From positions 195,139 through 259,138 of the forward strand of contig LCGL01000001.1 of the NCBI GenBank assembly GCA_000999715.1: a stretch of DNA of 64,000 bases. The letters are read 5' to 3'. The DNA is from Candidatus Falkowbacteria bacterium GW2011_GWF2_43_32 (lineage in GTDB: Bacteria > Patescibacteriota > Patescibacteriia > Patescibacteriales > UBA12465). Positions 54,800 through 59,723 of this stretch are shown here, piece after piece. The position numbers and the translations under genes were made by a program. Every line of letters begins with the position of its first letter. Position 1 is the first letter of the stretch. The notes beneath the pieces were generated by a model. The model worked only from the letters and a program-made list of their open reading frames with translations. It was not told the DNA's origin and did no database searches.

Positions 54800-54873
54800 G
54801 GGCCCTTAGCTCAGCTGGCTAGAGCACCTGCTTTGCAAGCAGGGGGTCATCGGTTCGAATCCGATAGGGTCCA
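54800..54873 (+). tRNA. tRNA-Ala (anticodon UGC); CCA is not encoded
   Basis: Hand-folded cloverleaf. Acceptor stem is GGGCCCT / AGGGTCC with the G3:U70 alanine identity pair. Anticodon stem is CCTGC / GCAGG with loop TTTGCAA. T-arm is ATCGG-TTCGAAT-CCGAT. The discriminator is A. Confidence 0.95.
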
Positions 54874-54885
54874 CAAACAAAGAAA

Positions 54886-54913
54886 ATTCCTAACGTATGT
54901 TAGGAATTTTTTT
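54886..54913 (+). terminator. Intrinsic terminator after tRNA-Ala
   Basis: 9-bp stem ATTCCTAAC / GTTAGGAAT with loop GTAT, followed by a run of 6 T. Confidence 0.7.
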
Positions 54914-54928
54914 GTTTATGATTCGTAG

Positions 54929-55090
54929 CTATCGGATTCGAACAGGCGGCGAGCGAAATAAAGGAGGAACGAAGTGACGACGAATATTTCGCGACGATAA
55001 ACGCGACCCGAGGGAGCGTTTAGCGGGTCCGCCGCGACAACGAGCGATGCGGCTGAGCATCGCGAGGCGGAAATCCGATAGGGTCCACCG
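54929..55090 (+). other. tRNA-Ala 3'-half-like sequence interrupted by a GC-rich, hairpin-dense insert of about 130 nt (element A)
   Basis: ATCGGATTCGAAC (54931..54943) mimics the tRNA T-arm ATCGGTTCGAATC. AATCCGATAGGGTCCAC (55072..55088) is an exact 17-nt copy of tRNA positions 54858..54874. Between them lie four hairpins: GCGAAATA / TATTTCGC, TAAACGC / GCGTTTA, GCGATGC / GCATCGC, and the enclosing CCGCC / GGCGG. Confidence 0.6.
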
Positions 55091-55096
55091 ACTAAT

Positions 55097-55125
55097 AAAA
55101 CTCCATAGAATATGGGGTTTTATTT
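55097..55125. terminator. Intrinsic terminator-like hairpin after element A
   Basis: CTCCATA-GAA-TATGGGG (one G:U pair), with AAAA upstream and TTTTATTT downstream. Confidence 0.5.
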
Positions 55126-55131
55126 ATTATA

Positions 55132-55159
55132 TTGACATTATTATAATTTTTGCTATAAT
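55132..55159 (+). promoter_or_regulatory. Near-perfect sigma70 promoter with an extended -10
   Basis: TTGACA (55132..55137), 16-nt spacer ending in TGC, then TATAAT (55154..55159). The 66-nt AT-only leader carries five TGTA(T/A)A repeats at 55159, 55179, 55189, 55208 and 55218, in phase at about 10 bp. It also carries the palindrome TACAA-TAT-TTGTA. Confidence 0.6.
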
Positions 55160-55225
55160 GTATATATTAATATAAAAATGTATAGATTTGTATAGTTTTA
55201 CAATATTTGTATATATTTGTAATAT

Positions 55226-55972
55226 ATGATAAATAATCAGAATAAATTAATAAAAATTAATGAAGCCGCAAAAATACTTAATATTTCCATACAAACATTA
55301 AGACGTTGGGATGAATCTGGGCGGCTTAAGGCTATCCGGGAAAACCAGAGAGGCCACCGCTATTATAAGTTTTCCGATATTCAACTAATGACGAACAATA
55401 TTTTTTCTTTAGCTGAAGAATGGATTTCAAGACAAACGGCCAGCGAGCCGGATAACCAATTTTTTTGTCTCGACAGCCCGACTTTTCAAGCTAGGCTCAG
55501 CCGCTTAGAAATGGCCATGCAAAAAATTCCTGAACTCAAAAAAGATTTTTCTTTTATCAGTTCAATGGTCGGGGAAATCGGCAATAACTCTTTTGATCAT
55601 AATTTGGGCTCTTGGCCAGATATTAGAGGTATCTTTTTCGCCTACGATTTAAATAAAAAACAAATTGTTTTGGCCGATAGAGGCCAGGGCATTCTAACCA
55701 CCCTTAAAAGAGTCCGGCCGGCCTTGATGAATGATGGCGAGGCCCTGCGCATGGCCTTTACGGAAAAAGTCTCTGGACGAGCTCCGGAGAACCGAGGAAA
55801 TGGCTTAAAATATGTTAAAAAAGTCGTGGTAGATATTAAAAAAGATATATCATTAAAATTATATTTCCAATCGGGCAATGCTTTTACTATTTTAGATGAT
55901 AAAACGATTAATCTAAAGATCGAACAAGCCGCTATACCCTTCCGAGGGTGTTTAGCTTTAATTAATTTTTAA
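55226..55972 (+). CDS. MerR/excisionase-type HTH fused to a minimal GHKL (RsbW/SpoIIAB-like) ATPase/kinase domain
   Basis: 248 aa. The N-terminus IKINEAAKILNISIQTLRRWDESGRLKAIRENQRGHRYY is an HTH. The C-terminus has the N-box GEIGNNSFDHN, the G1 box LADRGQGI and the G2 box NRGNGLKYV. Confidence 0.8.
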   Translation: MINNQNKLIKINEAAKILNISIQTLRRWDESGRLKAIRENQRGHRYYKFSDIQLMTNNIFSLAEEWISRQTASEPDNQFFCLDSPTFQARLSRLEMAMQKIPELKKDFSFISSMVGEIGNNSFDHNLGSWPDIRGIFFAYDLNKKQIVLADRGQGILTTLKRVRPALMNDGEALRMAFTEKVSGRAPENRGNGLKYVKKVVVDIKKDISLKLYFQSGNAFTILDDKTINLKIEQAAIPFRGCLALINF

Positions 55973-55976
55973 TAAT

Positions 55977-56264
55977 ATGCTCATTGAATTAAAAAAATTT
56001 GGCAATTTATTAACTTCTCGACAACTCGGAAAAGAATCTTTAGCCGCTCTGTCTCCTCAACTTCCTAAAGAAAATACTGAAAAAATTATTGTTGATTTTT
56101 CAGAAATTACAACTTTTTCTCCTTCCTGGGGAGACGAATTCCTGTCGCCTCTTCAACAAAAATATCAAAATAATTTATTCTTAAAAAATACTAATAATCC
56201 TTCGGTAAAAGCAACTATCGAAATTCTGGAAGAAACGAACCAAGTAAAATTTCAGGTAGAATAA
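55977..56264 (+). CDS. STAS-like small protein (DUF4325-type)
   Basis: 95 aa, starting 4 nt after the upstream stop. IIVDFSEITTFSPSWGDEFLSPL matches the 'D-F-x-x-V/I ... S-x-x-D-E-F/L' pattern of STAS-like DUF4325 proteins. Unverified. Confidence 0.65.
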   Translation: MLIELKKFGNLLTSRQLGKESLAALSPQLPKENTEKIIVDFSEITTFSPSWGDEFLSPLQQKYQNNLFLKNTNNPSVKATIEILEETNQVKFQVE

Positions 56265-56283
56265 AACTTTGCTCATCCTCCTT

Positions 56284-56332
56284 GCCCAATAATTAATTTC
56301 CCCAATAATTTTGTCTAAAGAGCGGGAAATCC
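56284..56332 (+). repeat. 49-bp direct repeat, copy 1
   Basis: GCCCAATAATTAATTTCCCCAATAATTTTGTCTAAAGAGCGGGAAATCC. It matches 58420..58468 at 48 of 49 positions. Confidence 0.95.
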
Positions 56333-56358
56333 ATTTTTTAATAACCACATAATAAAAT

Positions 56359-56384
56359 AACTCCACCCAAGTGGAGTTATTTTT
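56359..56384. terminator. Bidirectional terminator shared by the convergent island modules
   Basis: 8-bp stem AACTCCAC / GTGGAGTT with loop CCAA, with A/T runs on both sides. Confidence 0.6.
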
Positions 56385-56408
56385 CTATTTATAAATAAAT
56401 TTGAACAA

Positions 56409-57278
56409 TTATTCCGACTTATGCAACAATTCATAAAATTCCGCCAACTCATTAACCTTATCAGGATCCAGAAACATTTCTTCTTGCGGCCGGTCTTGAT
56501 TATCAAAACTAATTTTTAATTCTTTAAATTCGCCGTTATCATCAGTTTGAATATCAACATTATAAGAATCGGACGGATCAAATTCGCCTCCTATTTCTTT
56601 AATATCATTAAAACCAATTTTCCCCTTATCGCCGTTCTTAACCACTAAAGCTTGTTGCAATAAAAATTCCATTGTTCCACCATGAGTGCCGGCCGGTAAT
56701 AAAACTTTTGACCCCGAGTTCAATTTTTTAGCCATTGCTTGATAATGTTTAACTACATAGGCGAAAGAACCGGCTATTTCCTTTTTGTATTGAACGGCCT
56801 CGGGAGTAGAAAGACCTATTAAATAATTAACTGTGGCCATTTGGGCTTTCTTAGCAGCAACTATTTTTTCGGCATCGGCTAATTCGTCAAAATTATCCGG
56901 TAAATTTTTATTATAAATTTCGGTATGGTTGTAAGGCCTCGGTGAAACTAATTTTTCATAACTTAAAATATCGTTAACTCTGGTTTTAAATTTTTCATCA
57001 CCGGCAATTTCGGTGGCATAAATATCAGTCGTTTCTAAAGCCCTGCCCATTTTAATATCTTCTTTAATCGGGGAGGCATTGGAACCAATAGCTTTGACAG
57101 CATCAAAATCGTCCTGTTTTATACCGCTTTCAACCGCTTTTCTTTTTGTGATATCTCGGCCTAAGTCTAATAACTGCAAATCTTTTCCACGTTCACCGTG
57201 GCGCATAAATTTAATTAATATTTTTACATTTCGTCCGAATCTTTCCTGTTGTTCTAATCCGTTATTTATTCTTTCCAT
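56409..57278 (-). CDS. Histidine phosphatase superfamily (branch 1) protein, divergent
   Basis: 289 aa. LIKFMRHGERG carries the RHG catalytic motif, and LLPAGTHGGTMEF carries the second catalytic His. Otherwise it is unlike the canonical gpmA in this window. Confidence 0.72.
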   Translation of the reverse strand: MERINNGLEQQERFGRNVKILIKFMRHGERGKDLQLLDLGRDITKRKAVESGIKQDDFDAVKAIGSNASPIKEDIKMGRALETTDIYATEIAGDEKFKTRVNDILSYEKLVSPRPYNHTEIYNKNLPDNFDELADAEKIVAAKKAQMATVNYLIGLSTPEAVQYKKEIAGSFAYVVKHYQAMAKKLNSGSKVLLPAGTHGGTMEFLLQQALVVKNGDKGKIGFNDIKEIGGEFDPSDSYNVDIQTDDNGEFKELKISFDNQDRPQEEMFLDPDKVNELAEFYELLHKSE

Positions 57279-57293
57279 AAAATTACTTACTTA

Positions 57294-58346
57294 TTATTTT
57301 TCCTTAATAATTTTTATGATACCGTTATCAGCGTCAACTTCAACTTCATCACCGTTTTTTAAGATTTGCGTGGCTGTTTTTGTTCCGATAACACAAGGAA
57401 TTTTTAACTCTCGAGAAATAATCGCCGCATGGCAAGTCAAACCGCCCTCATCGGTAATAATCGCACCGCATTTTCTAATTAAAGGCATTAACTCCGGACT
57501 AGTACTGGTCGAAACTAAAATATCTCCTTTATTAAAAGTTAGGGATTTAATTTCGTTAGTTATTATTAAGCGCACTATGCCCCGGACTAATCCGCCACAA
57601 GCGACATTTCCCTTAATAATACCAACTGATTTAGTATTTCCCTCTATTTTCTTAATAATTTTAGTCGGATCTTTTACCCAATCAACTTTTTCCACACCAT
57701 TAAGATTTTTATAGACAAAAAATTTGCCTTTATTTGAATCTGAAATCCTTTTTTGCAAATTAATATTTTTTTTGCTTAATATCTCATTTAAAGTGAGGAA
57801 ATTAACTTCCTCTTTATTTTTTAAGCCAGCTAATTTTAATTCTTTAAACGCCAACGGTATAACAACCTTATTTATCACTCTTTCATAATAGGAAACCATC
57901 CTTAATTTCTTAACTAAATTAAAAATTTTTCTATCCTTGGCTGTTTCCGTCAAGGCGTCGCCAGATCGGAAAGGCAAAACCGTACAAAGCAAAGACAATT
58001 CAATTAAAAAATCAACGGCTGATTTAAAATTTTTAAAATCATTTTTCTTAATTGCCAAGATTGCTCTTTCGTTTAAAGCCAAACCCTTTTTTAATAACCT
58101 TTCTAGCTTACTTCTCTTTTTTAAAACTAAATTACTAAAAGTCAGAAAAAGCTTCTTTTGCTCGTTTTTGTCCCGGTAATACCTTACCATTCCTTTCGGA
58201 TATTCAACCATTAAACAATTCTTGACGTTTGCCCCGGCTATCTGTCGGCACTGTTTTGAAAGATACCATTCGTGCCACAAAGAAGTCCCAAAAAGAGTAA
58301 ACGGCCTAGCAATATATAATTCCCAGTTTTTGTCCTTAATGTCCAT
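57294..58346 (-). CDS. Protein with a C-terminal PEP-utilizing-enzyme mobile (phosphohistidine swivel) domain and an unassigned helical N-terminal region of about 250 aa
   Basis: 350 aa. The C-terminus GDILVSTSTSPELMPLIRKCGAIITDEGGLTCHAAIISRELKIPCVIG matches the swivel-domain signature GGxTxHAAIxxRExxIPxVxG. No ATP-grasp or PEP-binding TIM-barrel motifs were seen. Confidence 0.78.
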   Translation of the reverse strand: MDIKDKNWELYIARPFTLFGTSLWHEWYLSKQCRQIAGANVKNCLMVEYPKGMVRYYRDKNEQKKLFLTFSNLVLKKRSKLERLLKKGLALNERAILAIKKNDFKNFKSAVDFLIELSLLCTVLPFRSGDALTETAKDRKIFNLVKKLRMVSYYERVINKVVIPLAFKELKLAGLKNKEEVNFLTLNEILSKKNINLQKRISDSNKGKFFVYKNLNGVEKVDWVKDPTKIIKKIEGNTKSVGIIKGNVACGGLVRGIVRLIITNEIKSLTFNKGDILVSTSTSPELMPLIRKCGAIITDEGGLTCHAAIISRELKIPCVIGTKTATQILKNGDEVEVDADNGIIKIIKEK

Positions 58347-58365
58347 AGATGTATAATTATCTTTT

Positions 58366-58393
58366 ATTATAGCAAAATCCGGCTATTTTTCAA
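58366..58393 (-). promoter_or_regulatory. Near-consensus sigma70 promoter with an extended -10 for the swivel/phosphatase pair
   Basis: The minus strand reads TTGAAA, a 16-nt spacer ending in TGC, then TATAAT. It lies 19 nt upstream of the ATG at 58346. Confidence 0.55.
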
Positions 58394-58419
58394 TGAAAAT
58401 TTTATTATCCAAAACCCCC

Positions 58420-58468
58420 GCCCAATACTTAATTTCCCCAATAATTTTGTCTAAAGAGCGGGAAATCC
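58420..58468 (+). repeat. 49-bp direct repeat, copy 2
   Basis: GCCCAATACTTAATTTCCCCAATAATTTTGTCTAAAGAGCGGGAAATCC, with one mismatch to copy 1. It continues directly into element B. Confidence 0.95.
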
Positions 58469-58540
58469 GCGTTTAAACGACCACAAACAACGAGCCGCGC
58501 AGTGCGCGGCGAGGGCAAAATGCCCCTAGAGACTACCAAA
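58452..58540 (+). repeat. Element B: a diverged copy of the 3' part of element A
   Basis: The shared order is hairpin ending in GCGTTTA, then CAACGAGC, a second hairpin, GCGAGG, then AAAT.CC..TAG.G.C.ACC. The second hairpin is GCGATGC/GCATCGC in A and CCGCGC/GCGCGG in B, so the sequence differs but pairing is kept. Confidence 0.5.
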
Positions 58541-58568
58541 AAACATCCGGCAATAATTAGCCGGATGT
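58538..58568 (-). terminator. Intrinsic terminator of the fic gene
   Basis: 9-bp stem ACATCCGGC / GCCGGATGT with an 8-nt loop, followed by TTTTTT on the minus strand. It lies 18 nt past the fic stop. Confidence 0.7.
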
Positions 58569-58585
58569 TTTCAAATAAATAAATC

Positions 58586-59614
58586 CTATTTTAACTTATA
58601 ATAAGTCGCCTTACCTTTACCAACTTTTTCGATAATTCCGTCAGCTATCAATTTTCTAAAATCTAAATTCCTGGTTGGCTTGGCGCGATCAGTTAAGGCG
58701 GAATAATCTCTATCGGTGATATAACCTCTCTTTTTTATATAAGCAATGATCTTTTGATGATATTCTTTCAATTCTTTTCCTGGAGAATTATTTTCTTTTT
58801 CCAATTCTTTATTGACTCGTAAAAGTTCATCAATAATGCCGTCGGTAAAATATTCTAACCAAGGGGTAAGCTCAATTCTATCTTTAATTTCATAATAATT
58901 TCCCAAAACTCCAACTTCTTGAAAATAGCGGCTAACATTTTGATTATAATAATTTTCAAAACTGAAAAGATAAAAAGTATCGAGACCCATTTTGGCCAAT
59001 AATATCTTGGTGGCTAACCTGGCAGTTCGTCCATTACCATCCACGAAGGGATGTATAACAACAAATTGCTTATGAAAAATACCGGCTAAAATTAAAGGAT
59101 CTACTATATTCTTATTTTTATCAAGATAAAAAAATAGTTCTTTAAGCAATTTCTCCACTTCTTGATAATCTGGAGGCAAATAAACAGTTTGGCGTGTTTT
59201 AGGATTGTTAACAAAAACCGGTTCTTGACGAATTTTTCCGCAACGATAGTGCTCAATTAATCCCGCGGTAATTGTCTGCTGAATATGCGATATTAATTTT
59301 GTATCAAAAACTTCTTGACCGGATTTAATCAGAGCGTTTAATTCAACCAAAGCTTTGTTATAATTTAAAACTTCTTTTTCGCTGTCTCTGGCATTCTCCG
59401 GACTATTTTTTAAAATCCTCTTTACATCCGTCAACGGTAAAGGATTGCCTTCGATGCTGGTTGAAGAAAAAGCCGAAACTTCACGAGCTCGCTGCTCCAT
59501 ATTTAACAAAACTATGCGCGAAAAATTGCGATTATTAAGCTCGCTAATAATTTCACTAATTCTTTTAATATTAGCCAATAATTTATTAGAAATTGTATAT
59601 CTGGGGTTAAACAT
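58586..59614 (-). CDS. fic: Fic-domain protein (class II type with an N-terminal autoinhibitory motif) and a C-terminal winged-helix-like region
   Basis: 342 aa. The Fic core is HPFVDGNGRTARL (HxFx[DE]GNGRxxR). Upstream, SSTSIEGN fits the inhibitory (S/T)xxxE(G/N) motif. Confidence 0.9.
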   Translation of the reverse strand: MFNPRYTISNKLLANIKRISEIISELNNRNFSRIVLLNMEQRAREVSAFSSTSIEGNPLPLTDVKRILKNSPENARDSEKEVLNYNKALVELNALIKSGQEVFDTKLISHIQQTITAGLIEHYRCGKIRQEPVFVNNPKTRQTVYLPPDYQEVEKLLKELFFYLDKNKNIVDPLILAGIFHKQFVVIHPFVDGNGRTARLATKILLAKMGLDTFYLFSFENYYNQNVSRYFQEVGVLGNYYEIKDRIELTPWLEYFTDGIIDELLRVNKELEKENNSPGKELKEYHQKIIAYIKKRGYITDRDYSALTDRAKPTRNLDFRKLIADGIIEKVGKGKATYYKLK

Positions 59615-59624
59615 ATATAGTCAT

Positions 59625-59653
59625 ATTATAGACGATTATTAGACGATTGTCAA
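59625..59653 (-). promoter_or_regulatory. Perfect sigma70 consensus promoter for fic, with direct repeats in the spacer
   Basis: The minus strand reads TTGACA-ATCGTCTAATAATCGTC-TATAAT with a 17-nt spacer. The -10 hexamer ends only 10 nt before the fic ATG and no SD is present. A third ATCGTCT copy lies just upstream (59664..59672 on the plus strand). Confidence 0.65.
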
Positions 59654-59723
59654 TAAATATAATAAGACGATAATGCCCCGGTGACCGCTAATTATTTGTA
59701 ACCGTAAATATCTTGAGAAACAA

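Follow-up and report, generated by a model that had tools for sequence, protein, structure and literature searches.

Transfer RNA (tRNA) genes are the main integration hot spots, and a border repeat that starts in the T-loop is the classic sign of tRNA-targeted integration (PMC3146451). The islands found at ssrA in Dehalococcoides are bordered by a 20-bp repeat extending from the T-loop to the 3' end, lie as tandem units downstream of a gene restored by element-borne sequence, and vary in their presence between strains (PMC3146451). Integron attC sites (PMC5027507) and the attP(+) site of CTX (PMC3442271) are strand-specific folds in which structure is kept while the stems change. Patescibacteria have tiny genomes in which few mobile elements or regulatory RNAs have been recognized. 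Here, we describe an element, designated A, located behind a tRNA-Ala gene in 64,000 nucleotides of DNA from Candidatus Falkowbacteria bacterium GW2011_GWF2_43_32 (GenBank assembly GCA_000999715.1, contig LCGL01000001.1, positions 195,139 to 259,138). This entire stretch is referred to as the window, and coordinates are those of the window unless they are preceded by a locus number (L). Element A belongs, as a complete copy, to an uncatalogued family of tightly folded non-coding elements of ~165 nt in Patescibacteria, of which literature searches did not reveal any description.

The window contains a single tRNA gene, tRNA-Ala(TGC), which is located on the plus strand at 54800-54874 (ARAGORN; 69.7 bits in Rfam), as are the parts of the unit described below. 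The last 17 nt of this gene (A58-C74, 54858-54874; AATCCGATAGGGTCCAC) occur exactly twice, the second copy being at 55072-55088, for a chance expectation of 0.08 matches. Terminator T1 (54880-54913), a long hairpin with A/T flanks, follows the tRNA gene, and terminator T2 (55094-55124) follows the second copy of the 17-mer. Element A (54923-55088) lies between the two terminators and has a GC content of 59%, in comparison to 17 to 40% around it. These observations bear out the original prediction, made from the letters of the window, of a GC-rich stretch that is bracketed by two terminators and that closes by repeating the last 17 nt of the tRNA exactly. The closing segment had also been called a tRNA mimic; its identity to the tRNA end stands, and the segment rather duplicates, without mismatch, 17 nt from the 3' end of the neighboring tRNA, an arrangement seen behind five tRNAs. 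T1, a conserved heptamer, a structured core, and the second 17-mer make up a 214-bp unit (54875-55088 or, equivalently, 54858-55071) that varies between strains.

Element A opens with the heptamer (54923-54929), which is TCGTAGC in this copy and TCGCAAC in the family consensus, as deduced from the alignment of the family (A1, see below) and from an alignment of upstream regions. The left arm, CTATCGGATTCGAAC (54929-54943), supplies the 5' strand of helix P1, in which 54929-54938 is base-paired to 55072-55081, the 3' strand corresponding to the initial 10 nt of the second 17-mer. This arm is the exact reverse complement of positions 54853-54867 of the tRNA gene, which cover the T-loop, the 3' strand of the T-stem, and the first two acceptor bases (AG). 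The opening string that had been described as T-arm-like is present, and it provides the complementary strand of P1, the closing helix. Helix P2 (54945-55033) is formed by GGCGG (54945-54949) and CCGCC (55029-55033) and encloses hairpin P3 (54950-54993), which is variable and compensated, and hairpin P4 (CGATAAACGCGA...GAGCGTTTAGCG, 54995-55025), which does not vary within the main family and shows covariation among diverged subfamilies. The junction GACAACGAGC, hairpin P5 (55044-55063), and the junction GCGAGGCGGA occupy 55036-55071 and lead to the second 17-mer. The predicted fold of element A is a closed multibranch structure (z = -4.3) that contains hairpins P3, P4, and P5 and the GGCGG/CCGCC helix, thereby recovering the hairpins and the enclosing pair that had been drawn by eye.

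A pattern of three blocks common to element A and to element B, a second copy in the window, was scanned against public metagenome contigs and species genomes. The scan retrieved 52 loci (42 in metagenomes and 10 in genomes), ~29 of which displayed the complete architecture of element A, and searches with nhmmer and with a covariance model, R1, led to at least 30 family copies. In every copy with upstream context, the unit was located one terminator downstream of a tRNA gene and on the same strand, the copies lying 45 to 50 nt behind the tRNA. The partner tRNAs were Ala(TGC), Gly(TCC), Val(GAC), Glu(TTC/CTC), and Cys(GCA); a restriction to tRNAs reading GNN codons (Ala, Gly, Val, and Glu) was dropped once the tRNA-Cys unit had been found. 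The copy ended in exactly the last 17 nt (A58-C74) of its own tRNA in 13 of 16 loci. The 5' arm was complementary to the T-loop/T-stem side of this segment and followed single-base variants of the host tRNA. Every unit was followed by a terminator. Alignment of the upstream regions revealed a -10-like hexamer adjoining the heptamer in most units; the hexamer is TATGAT in element A, and positions 54923-54929 may constitute a transcription start region. Units were found in tandem in L016, L030, L034, L036, and L040, and several contigs ended within units, as repeats would. No copy of A other than B was detected in the 64-kb window, and several copies per contig were present elsewhere. Relative to miniature inverted-repeat transposable elements, which have terminal inverted repeats of their own, a short target duplication of fixed length, and multiple dispersed copies, the units have an inverted pair of arms of 10 to 15 nt, but these arms are matched to the target and are not constant for the element.

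The phylogeny of the core interior intermixes tRNA types, as exemplified by a Glu unit that is 89% identical to an Ala unit, and strongly diverged subfamilies occur as tandem units with the same arm type behind one tRNA (L030 and L016). Comparison of L018 (5089-5371) and L037 (1697-1980) revealed 100% identity from the middle of the core rightwards, ~85 to 90% identity leftwards, and different T1 sequences; this switch, as read from the two sequences, is a recombination breakpoint within the unit. Since the interior phylogeny mixes tRNA types, diverged units share an array and an arm type, and T1 differs between near-identical strains, the comparison of units demonstrates repeated re-matching of the arms to different tRNAs. 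The terminators that separate the tRNA from the core form long and perfect hairpins, in which the flanking A-tract and T-tract also pair, and many have GAAT-type loops. They belong to a few sequence types that are common to several species and better conserved than the core interior. T1 sequences nearly identical to that of the window were found in units of other species (L036 and L037), the window and L036 being representative of the shared type.

Alignment A1 comprised 22 distinct copies and 43 consensus pairs organized in five helices: P1, formed by the 5' arm and the 17-mer and closing the structure, P2, and hairpins P3, P4, and P5. The junctions between the helices are long, invariant, and purine-rich (GAAC, CGAGCGAG, GAGCGACGA, GGACAACGAGC, and GCGAGGCGGAA). 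In A1, 96.1% of the cells were paired, versus 30 to 43% if the partners were slid by 1 to 3 columns (28 to 43% in the slid controls overall). Double changes were observed in 23 of the 43 pairs, including all 4 pairs of P2, and none of 500 shuffles reached the observed values. With diverged members included, double changes were observed in 35 of the 43 pairs, among them all those of P4, in an alignment that was fitted to the covariance model and that consequently favors structure. On the plus strand, G-U pairs outnumbered A-C pairs (39 versus 11), indicating that the tRNA-sense strand is the folding strand. Covariation was significant for a fold of one strand, as is generic for structured RNAs. 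Judged from these alignments, the conserved fold points to a functional RNA or to a structured single-strand site and not to a random scar. The original prediction had reached the same view from two copies, which are now replaced by 22 to 30 homologues.

Strain L003, which is 97.7% identical upstream, contains the same tRNA-Ala followed directly by the sequence located behind the second 17-mer of the window; T1 is missing, T2 stands directly behind the tRNA, and position 54893 is joined to 55072, with overlap. The difference between L003 and the window is exactly 214 bp, with the 17-nt repeat at its borders. Two such features, an exact difference of one repeat-bounded segment between filled and empty sites and a direct repeat of the tRNA 3' end at the borders of the insert (exact over 17 nt here; 13 of 16 loci in the family), are shared with tRNA-targeted integrative elements. 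The filled form was present in three other samples, and the arrangement was identical to that of the window in L002 and L067. Across relatives, occupancy of the syntenic tRNA-Ala locus by units was patchy. In L084, a truncated 5' remnant of a unit (2950-2995; GGCAAAC-TAGCGGATGAGAAC-AGGCGGCGAGCGAAAT) is located behind tRNA-Ala and a terminator, and ~600 nt of AT-rich sequence replaces the remainder.

Searches with Rfam 15 at gathering and permissive thresholds, performed with the window and six family loci, yielded nothing beyond tRNAs and, over the element, noise below threshold. In viral contigs, three patterns gave no match or random coding matches, and blastn searches for distant similarity in GenBank phages and PLSDB plasmids did not reveal any match to the element. 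The region did not align to a characterized attP or to any Rfam family, an alignment to a known element such as an attP fragment being the alternative named with the original prediction. The box II motif of tyrosine recombinases was absent from 228 kb, the unit contains no open reading frame (ORF) for an integrase, and the window genes at 2 to 33 kb are housekeeping genes and include no recombinase gene. Several identities were rejected. Only 54800-54873 scored as a tRNA, and element A lacks a 5' acceptor strand, a D arm, and an anticodon arm. A split tRNA is incompatible with the intact tRNA-Ala, the terminator within the unit, and the lack of a 5' acceptor strand. Integron attC, a site with R''/R' core sequences (RYYYAAC/GTTRRRY), was rejected because the paired ends vary here with the tRNA and the interior is conserved, and scans of the window and of the neighbors detected no IntI-like gene. 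An IS110 bridge RNA or a TnpB omega RNA was rejected because the units adjoin housekeeping genes and not recombinase or nuclease genes.

Element B had been proposed to be a diverged second copy of A. The two elements are related, since the three-block pattern matched only A and B in the window (0 matches expected) and since R1, built without B, found B with 27.9 bits (E ~1e-6 to 6e-5). B is an internally deleted and degenerate unit (58450-58538, plus strand), identified by the match to the covariance model, the pattern, and the fold, and followed by a terminator (58541-58575, plus strand). Its alignment to R1 lacks ~90 internal positions and retains the junction CAACGAGC, hairpin P5 (58494-58510), the junction GCGAGG, and a decayed 3' arm. 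This arm, AATGCCCCTAGAGACTAC, resembles the tRNA-Glu end ATTCCCCTAGGGACTAC and not the tRNA-Ala end, B thus carrying a Glu-type arm within a tRNA-Ala locus. As for the strings thought to flank both copies, GCGAGG is a conserved junction, and GCGTTTA of B probably belongs to the scar of a decayed tRNA end and not to helix P4. The replacement of stem GCGATGC/GCATCGC of A by CCGCGC/GCGCGG in B is compensatory, as had been stated, and is one of many compensated variants of P5 in the family.

A 66-nt direct repeat containing the motif TTAATTTCCCCAATAATT was found at 56284-56349, at 58420-58485, in L086 (3740-3830), and twice in L030 (140-205 and 1755-1815); behind each copy come the decayed end of a tRNA and then a terminator. 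In L086, the gene for a large serine recombinase is antisense to tRNA-Ala and extends into it, the same layout as that of the DsiB serine integrase in the Dehalococcoides ssrA islands (PMC3146451). This recombinase gene comes last in a conserved module, after Rep (PF23343) and two small ORFs. Some ~7.8 kb farther along, the motif precedes ...GACCAC, a terminator, and a resident unit comprising T1 and the core. The serine-recombinase element is accordingly located between tRNA-Ala and the resident unit, which lies outside it. Read as in the circular form, the motif specifies the C-terminal ~20 codons of the recombinase (minus strand, ..SLDKIIGEI.YW..), and integrated copies of the recombinase end in ...PRGIEPLLPG, the antisense translation of the T-arm. 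For the serine recombinases found near units, the crossover point is at the very 3' end (..CCAC|), and these enzymes do not make 17-bp repeats. Homology of the motif to the attR of L086 together with the recombinase tail indicates that two sites of the window are attR scars. These are site C (56284-56349, plus strand), which is 89% identical over 66 nt to 58420-58485 and precedes a terminator, and the left flank of B (58420-58468, plus strand), in which a decayed tRNA end (...GACCAC) accompanies the last recombinase codons, read on the minus strand. Both sites, and not element A, combine homology to the L086 attR, recombinase tail codons, a decayed tRNA end, and a terminator. We rejected the possibility that the core is an attP arm or a single-strand origin of the serine-recombinase/Rep elements, since the unit of L086 is outside the element and the elements of L087 to L091 do not contain the core.

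The module formed by a rolling-circle Rep (PF23343), two ORFs of ~50 amino acids, and a large serine recombinase is a widespread integrative module of Patescibacteria (L076 to L081, L086, L087, and L088 to L091). It is inserted at tRNA-Ala and tRNA-Glu, and also near tRNA-Arg, with the recombinase ORF antisense into the tRNA. In L088 and L090, an Avd-like (bAvd) gene and an RVT_1 reverse transcriptase gene are located beside genes for Fib_succ_major-domain proteins (6111-8026 in L088, 1294-3209 in L090); this set looks like a diversity-generating retroelement beside the serine-recombinase module. Strain L003, which lacks unit A, has a 74-nt GC-rich insert at site C (L003 9091-9164, window ~56342-56349) composed of a hairpin, a pseudo-tRNA-like end (..GGCTTACGCC), AAAAAAC, and a terminator, a layout corresponding to the 3' part of B.

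Downstream of the copied tRNA end of A, positions 55100-59720 form a low-GC (~32%) region that is absent from L008, L009, and L082. In more distant relatives, tRNA-Ala is directly followed by ddl and polA, indicating that ~55100-59720 is an accessory island. Its genes encode a MerR-type helix-turn-helix protein with an uncharacterized C-terminal domain, a DUF4325 STAS-like partner, a 289-residue protein of unknown function, a PEP-utilizer mobile-domain protein, and a Fic protein matching PADLOC SoFic (E 2e-45). A perfect σ70-type promoter (TTGACA, 16 nt, TATAAT, with an upstream TG) is located at 55132-55159, just past T2 and before the MerR-like gene. The presence of attR scars downstream of A points to the copied tRNA end (17-mer plus T2) as the most likely entry point of the island, which most likely used this end, and not the tRNA itself, as attB. 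In L086, L032, L010, L035, L046, and L049, islands were inserted between the tRNA and the unit.

We tentatively favor the interpretation that element A is a structured RNA (or single-stranded DNA) module that propagates unit-wise and is tethered to tRNA 3' ends. The unit consists of T1, the heptamer, the ~150-nt five-helix core, and the exact 17-nt repeat of the tRNA end, with the second terminator behind the repeat. P1 closes the fold by pairing of the 5' arm with the initial 10 nt of this repeat, so that each copy is tailored to its own tRNA. The core would be a small structured RNA that would probably start at the heptamer, just behind the -10-like hexamer, and end at T2, and T1 would keep the tRNA gene properly terminated. 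The unit is gained or lost as a block through the 17-nt repeat, probably via recombination within the repeat, and it has moved among at least five tRNA species; it would spread by recombination at the tRNA end mediated by a factor supplied in trans. Together with T2, the copy of the tRNA end appears to recreate, as seen in the window, the attachment site of the integrative elements that encode large serine recombinases.

Several observations weigh against this interpretation. The acceptor-side repeat is decayed in 3 of the 16 copies. No circular or autonomous form of the unit was found in the searches of viral contigs, phages, and plasmids, and no recombinase or mobility gene was linked to the units, Pfam analysis of 67 neighboring ORFs having identified housekeeping functions without enrichment in recombinases. 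With respect to transcription, a consensus scan detected no σ70 promoter upstream of the core in the window, and a strong terminator, T1, precedes the core. A folded single DNA strand would yield the same covariation and the same bias toward G-T pairs. Finally, the 214-bp difference may result from a gain in the lineage of the window or from a loss in L003, and the data lean toward a loss, as units or remnants are present at the same tRNA-Ala in the relatives L042 and L084.

A possible but less probable alternative is a non-autonomous integrative DNA element devoid of any RNA function, the fold of which would act as single-stranded DNA, as in attC or the CTX attP(+), with P1 providing a duplex copy of the tRNA site to a host or helper recombinase acting in trans. 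The 17-bp border repeat starting in the T-loop, the polymorphism of filled and empty sites exact to the repeat, the strand specificity of the fold, the lack of a canonical promoter in the window copy, and the presence at the same tRNAs of elements encoding rolling-circle Rep, which involves single-stranded DNA, all fit such an element. Tandem arrays also fit, as with CTX (PMC3442271). The same alternative has to accommodate the absence of a linked recombinase among the 67 neighboring ORFs and in the 228-kb motif scan, nearby serine recombinases whose crossover is at the very 3' end and that do not make 17-bp repeats, and the absence of copies on the viral contigs, phages, and plasmids searched. 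Moreover, the long invariant purine-rich junctions and the five helices exceed the needs of known folded att sites, and the unit of L086 is outside the integrated element.

Less probable still is a resident, non-mobile small RNA gene linked to tRNAs, with ancient copies whose arms would be matched by gene conversion and compensatory selection and with L003 arising by deletion between the 17-nt repeats. Native units behind tRNAs in many lineages, islands that entered between the tRNA and the unit in the six loci listed above, the units or remnants of L042 and L084 at the tRNA-Ala of the window, the RNA-like covariation, and the terminator behind every unit agree with this possibility. It is difficult to reconcile with an interior phylogeny that mixes tRNA types, with strongly diverged units in tandem behind one tRNA (L030 and L016), with the Glu-type copy (B) in an Ala locus, with T1 swapped between near-identical strains, and with the patchy occupancy of the syntenic tRNA-Ala locus.

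Returning to the propagating module, we can envisage a more specific and rather doubtful function, in which the core would be a programmable targeting module. Two exchangeable arms would specify the segment of the tRNA extending from the T-loop to the 3' end and guide a trans-acting recombinase of the host or of a helper to insert the unit at this place; by recreating the attachment site of the tRNA end, the unit may also capture serine-recombinase elements or divert them from the essential tRNA gene. It is an equally doubtful proposal that the unit would then be a gene-less mobile element carrying a guide, in the form of an RNA or of a folded DNA strand.

The remaining explanations are far less probable. 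Arms of attL and attR left by a deleted classical genomic island, with hairpins devoid of function, would account for the repeated tRNA 3' end and for the genomic-island graveyard directly downstream; this highly improbable origin is contradicted by a 150-nt core kept across genera and five tRNAs, 23 to 35 compensated pairs, invariant junctions, and a constant size and layout. It is just as implausible that the T-loop of the tRNA is interrupted by an intron-like sequence, for instance a small group I intron whose true 3' exon would be the distal 17-mer, even though 214 nt falls within the size range of the smallest group I introns. Such introns are common in tRNA genes of Patescibacteria (PMC13011429). 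The upstream tRNA is complete, a strong terminator is located inside the putative intron, no Intron_gpI match was obtained even at E ≤ 10, the fold lacks a P3-P8 or P7 core, and L003 has the same tRNA without the unit. A role linked to coding or translation, as a leader peptide (a Shine-Dalgarno sequence and an 8-codon ORF), a micro-protein of ~30 residues, or a transfer-messenger RNA (tmRNA)-like tag RNA, is the weakest explanation of all: the AAGGAGG (54961-54967) and GTG mini-ORF (54974-55000, MTTNISRR*) held by P3 are present as had been noted, and the 3' end is tRNA-Ala-like, but the start codon, the frame, and the Shine-Dalgarno sequence are specific to this copy and not conserved in the family, ARAGORN detected no tmRNA, a 5' acceptor strand is lacking, and the arms also copy tRNAs for Glu, Val, Gly, and Cys. 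An ORF of ~30 codons (MS..NRATINA..AFSGS..DNERR*; A1 positions ~44-136, with the stop in the P5 loop) is present in 9 of 22 units. It is broken in the other units by a missing ATG, frameshifts, or changes in the length of the P4 loop that are not multiples of three, and it is probably a by-product of sequence conservation.

The family is thus a well-supported structured element missing from Rfam, physically tied to tRNA genes, with arms that were re-matched to at least five tRNAs. If the unit encodes an RNA, this RNA would define a new class with the unusual need to copy the 3' end of its neighbor. If the unit is a recombination module, a gene-less unit would target essential genes safely and multiply attachment sites. 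The units interrupt assemblies and give rise to pseudo-tRNA ends, and they account for the layout of the accessory islands of these genomes. Covariance model R1 is directly usable for their annotation.

Comparison with known systems reveals partial likenesses. The bridge RNA of IS110 and the omega RNAs of TnpB and IscB are also structured scaffolds of ~150 to 180 nt with short exchangeable segments matching the DNA target, and the omega RNA of TnpB has the target-identical segment (17 nt in our units) at its 3' end. Unlike these guide RNAs, the units do not adjoin such a gene and have no Rfam match, 10 nt of the "guide" are paired in P1, and an occupied locus would itself be a target. Remnants of the cis-mobilizable element (CIME) type similarly consist of att-like repeats around a segment without recombination genes, for which mobilization in trans is conceivable. 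CIMEs are deletion derivatives of larger elements and not conserved structured families, whereas the same core recurs here across genera. The units share with attC (PMC5027507) and the CTX attP(+) (PMC3442271) a strand-specific fold, structure kept while stem sequences change, an inverted arm that is paired to the core repeat present at each unit boundary, tandem arrays, and the lack of a recombinase inside the unit. They differ from attC by the distribution of conservation, since the attC interior is variable and its paired ends are conserved, which is the reverse of the situation found here. They also differ from both sites by the lack of IntI or of an attI platform, by a target that is a tRNA gene and not dif or attI, and by long invariant junctions. 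The Dehalococcoides ssrA islands (PMC3146451) are similar with respect to the repeat extending from the T-loop to the 3' end (17 nt here versus 20 bp), the tandem units, the gene restored by element-borne sequence, and the variation between strains. In contrast to these islands, the unit spans 214 bp, contains no genes, and has a conserved five-helix fold as its interior, related cores carry arms for five tRNAs, and the serine recombinases present at these tRNAs have their crossover point at the very 3' end and leave different scars. The element is a variant among tRNA-end-associated elements and a member of none of the families with which it was compared.

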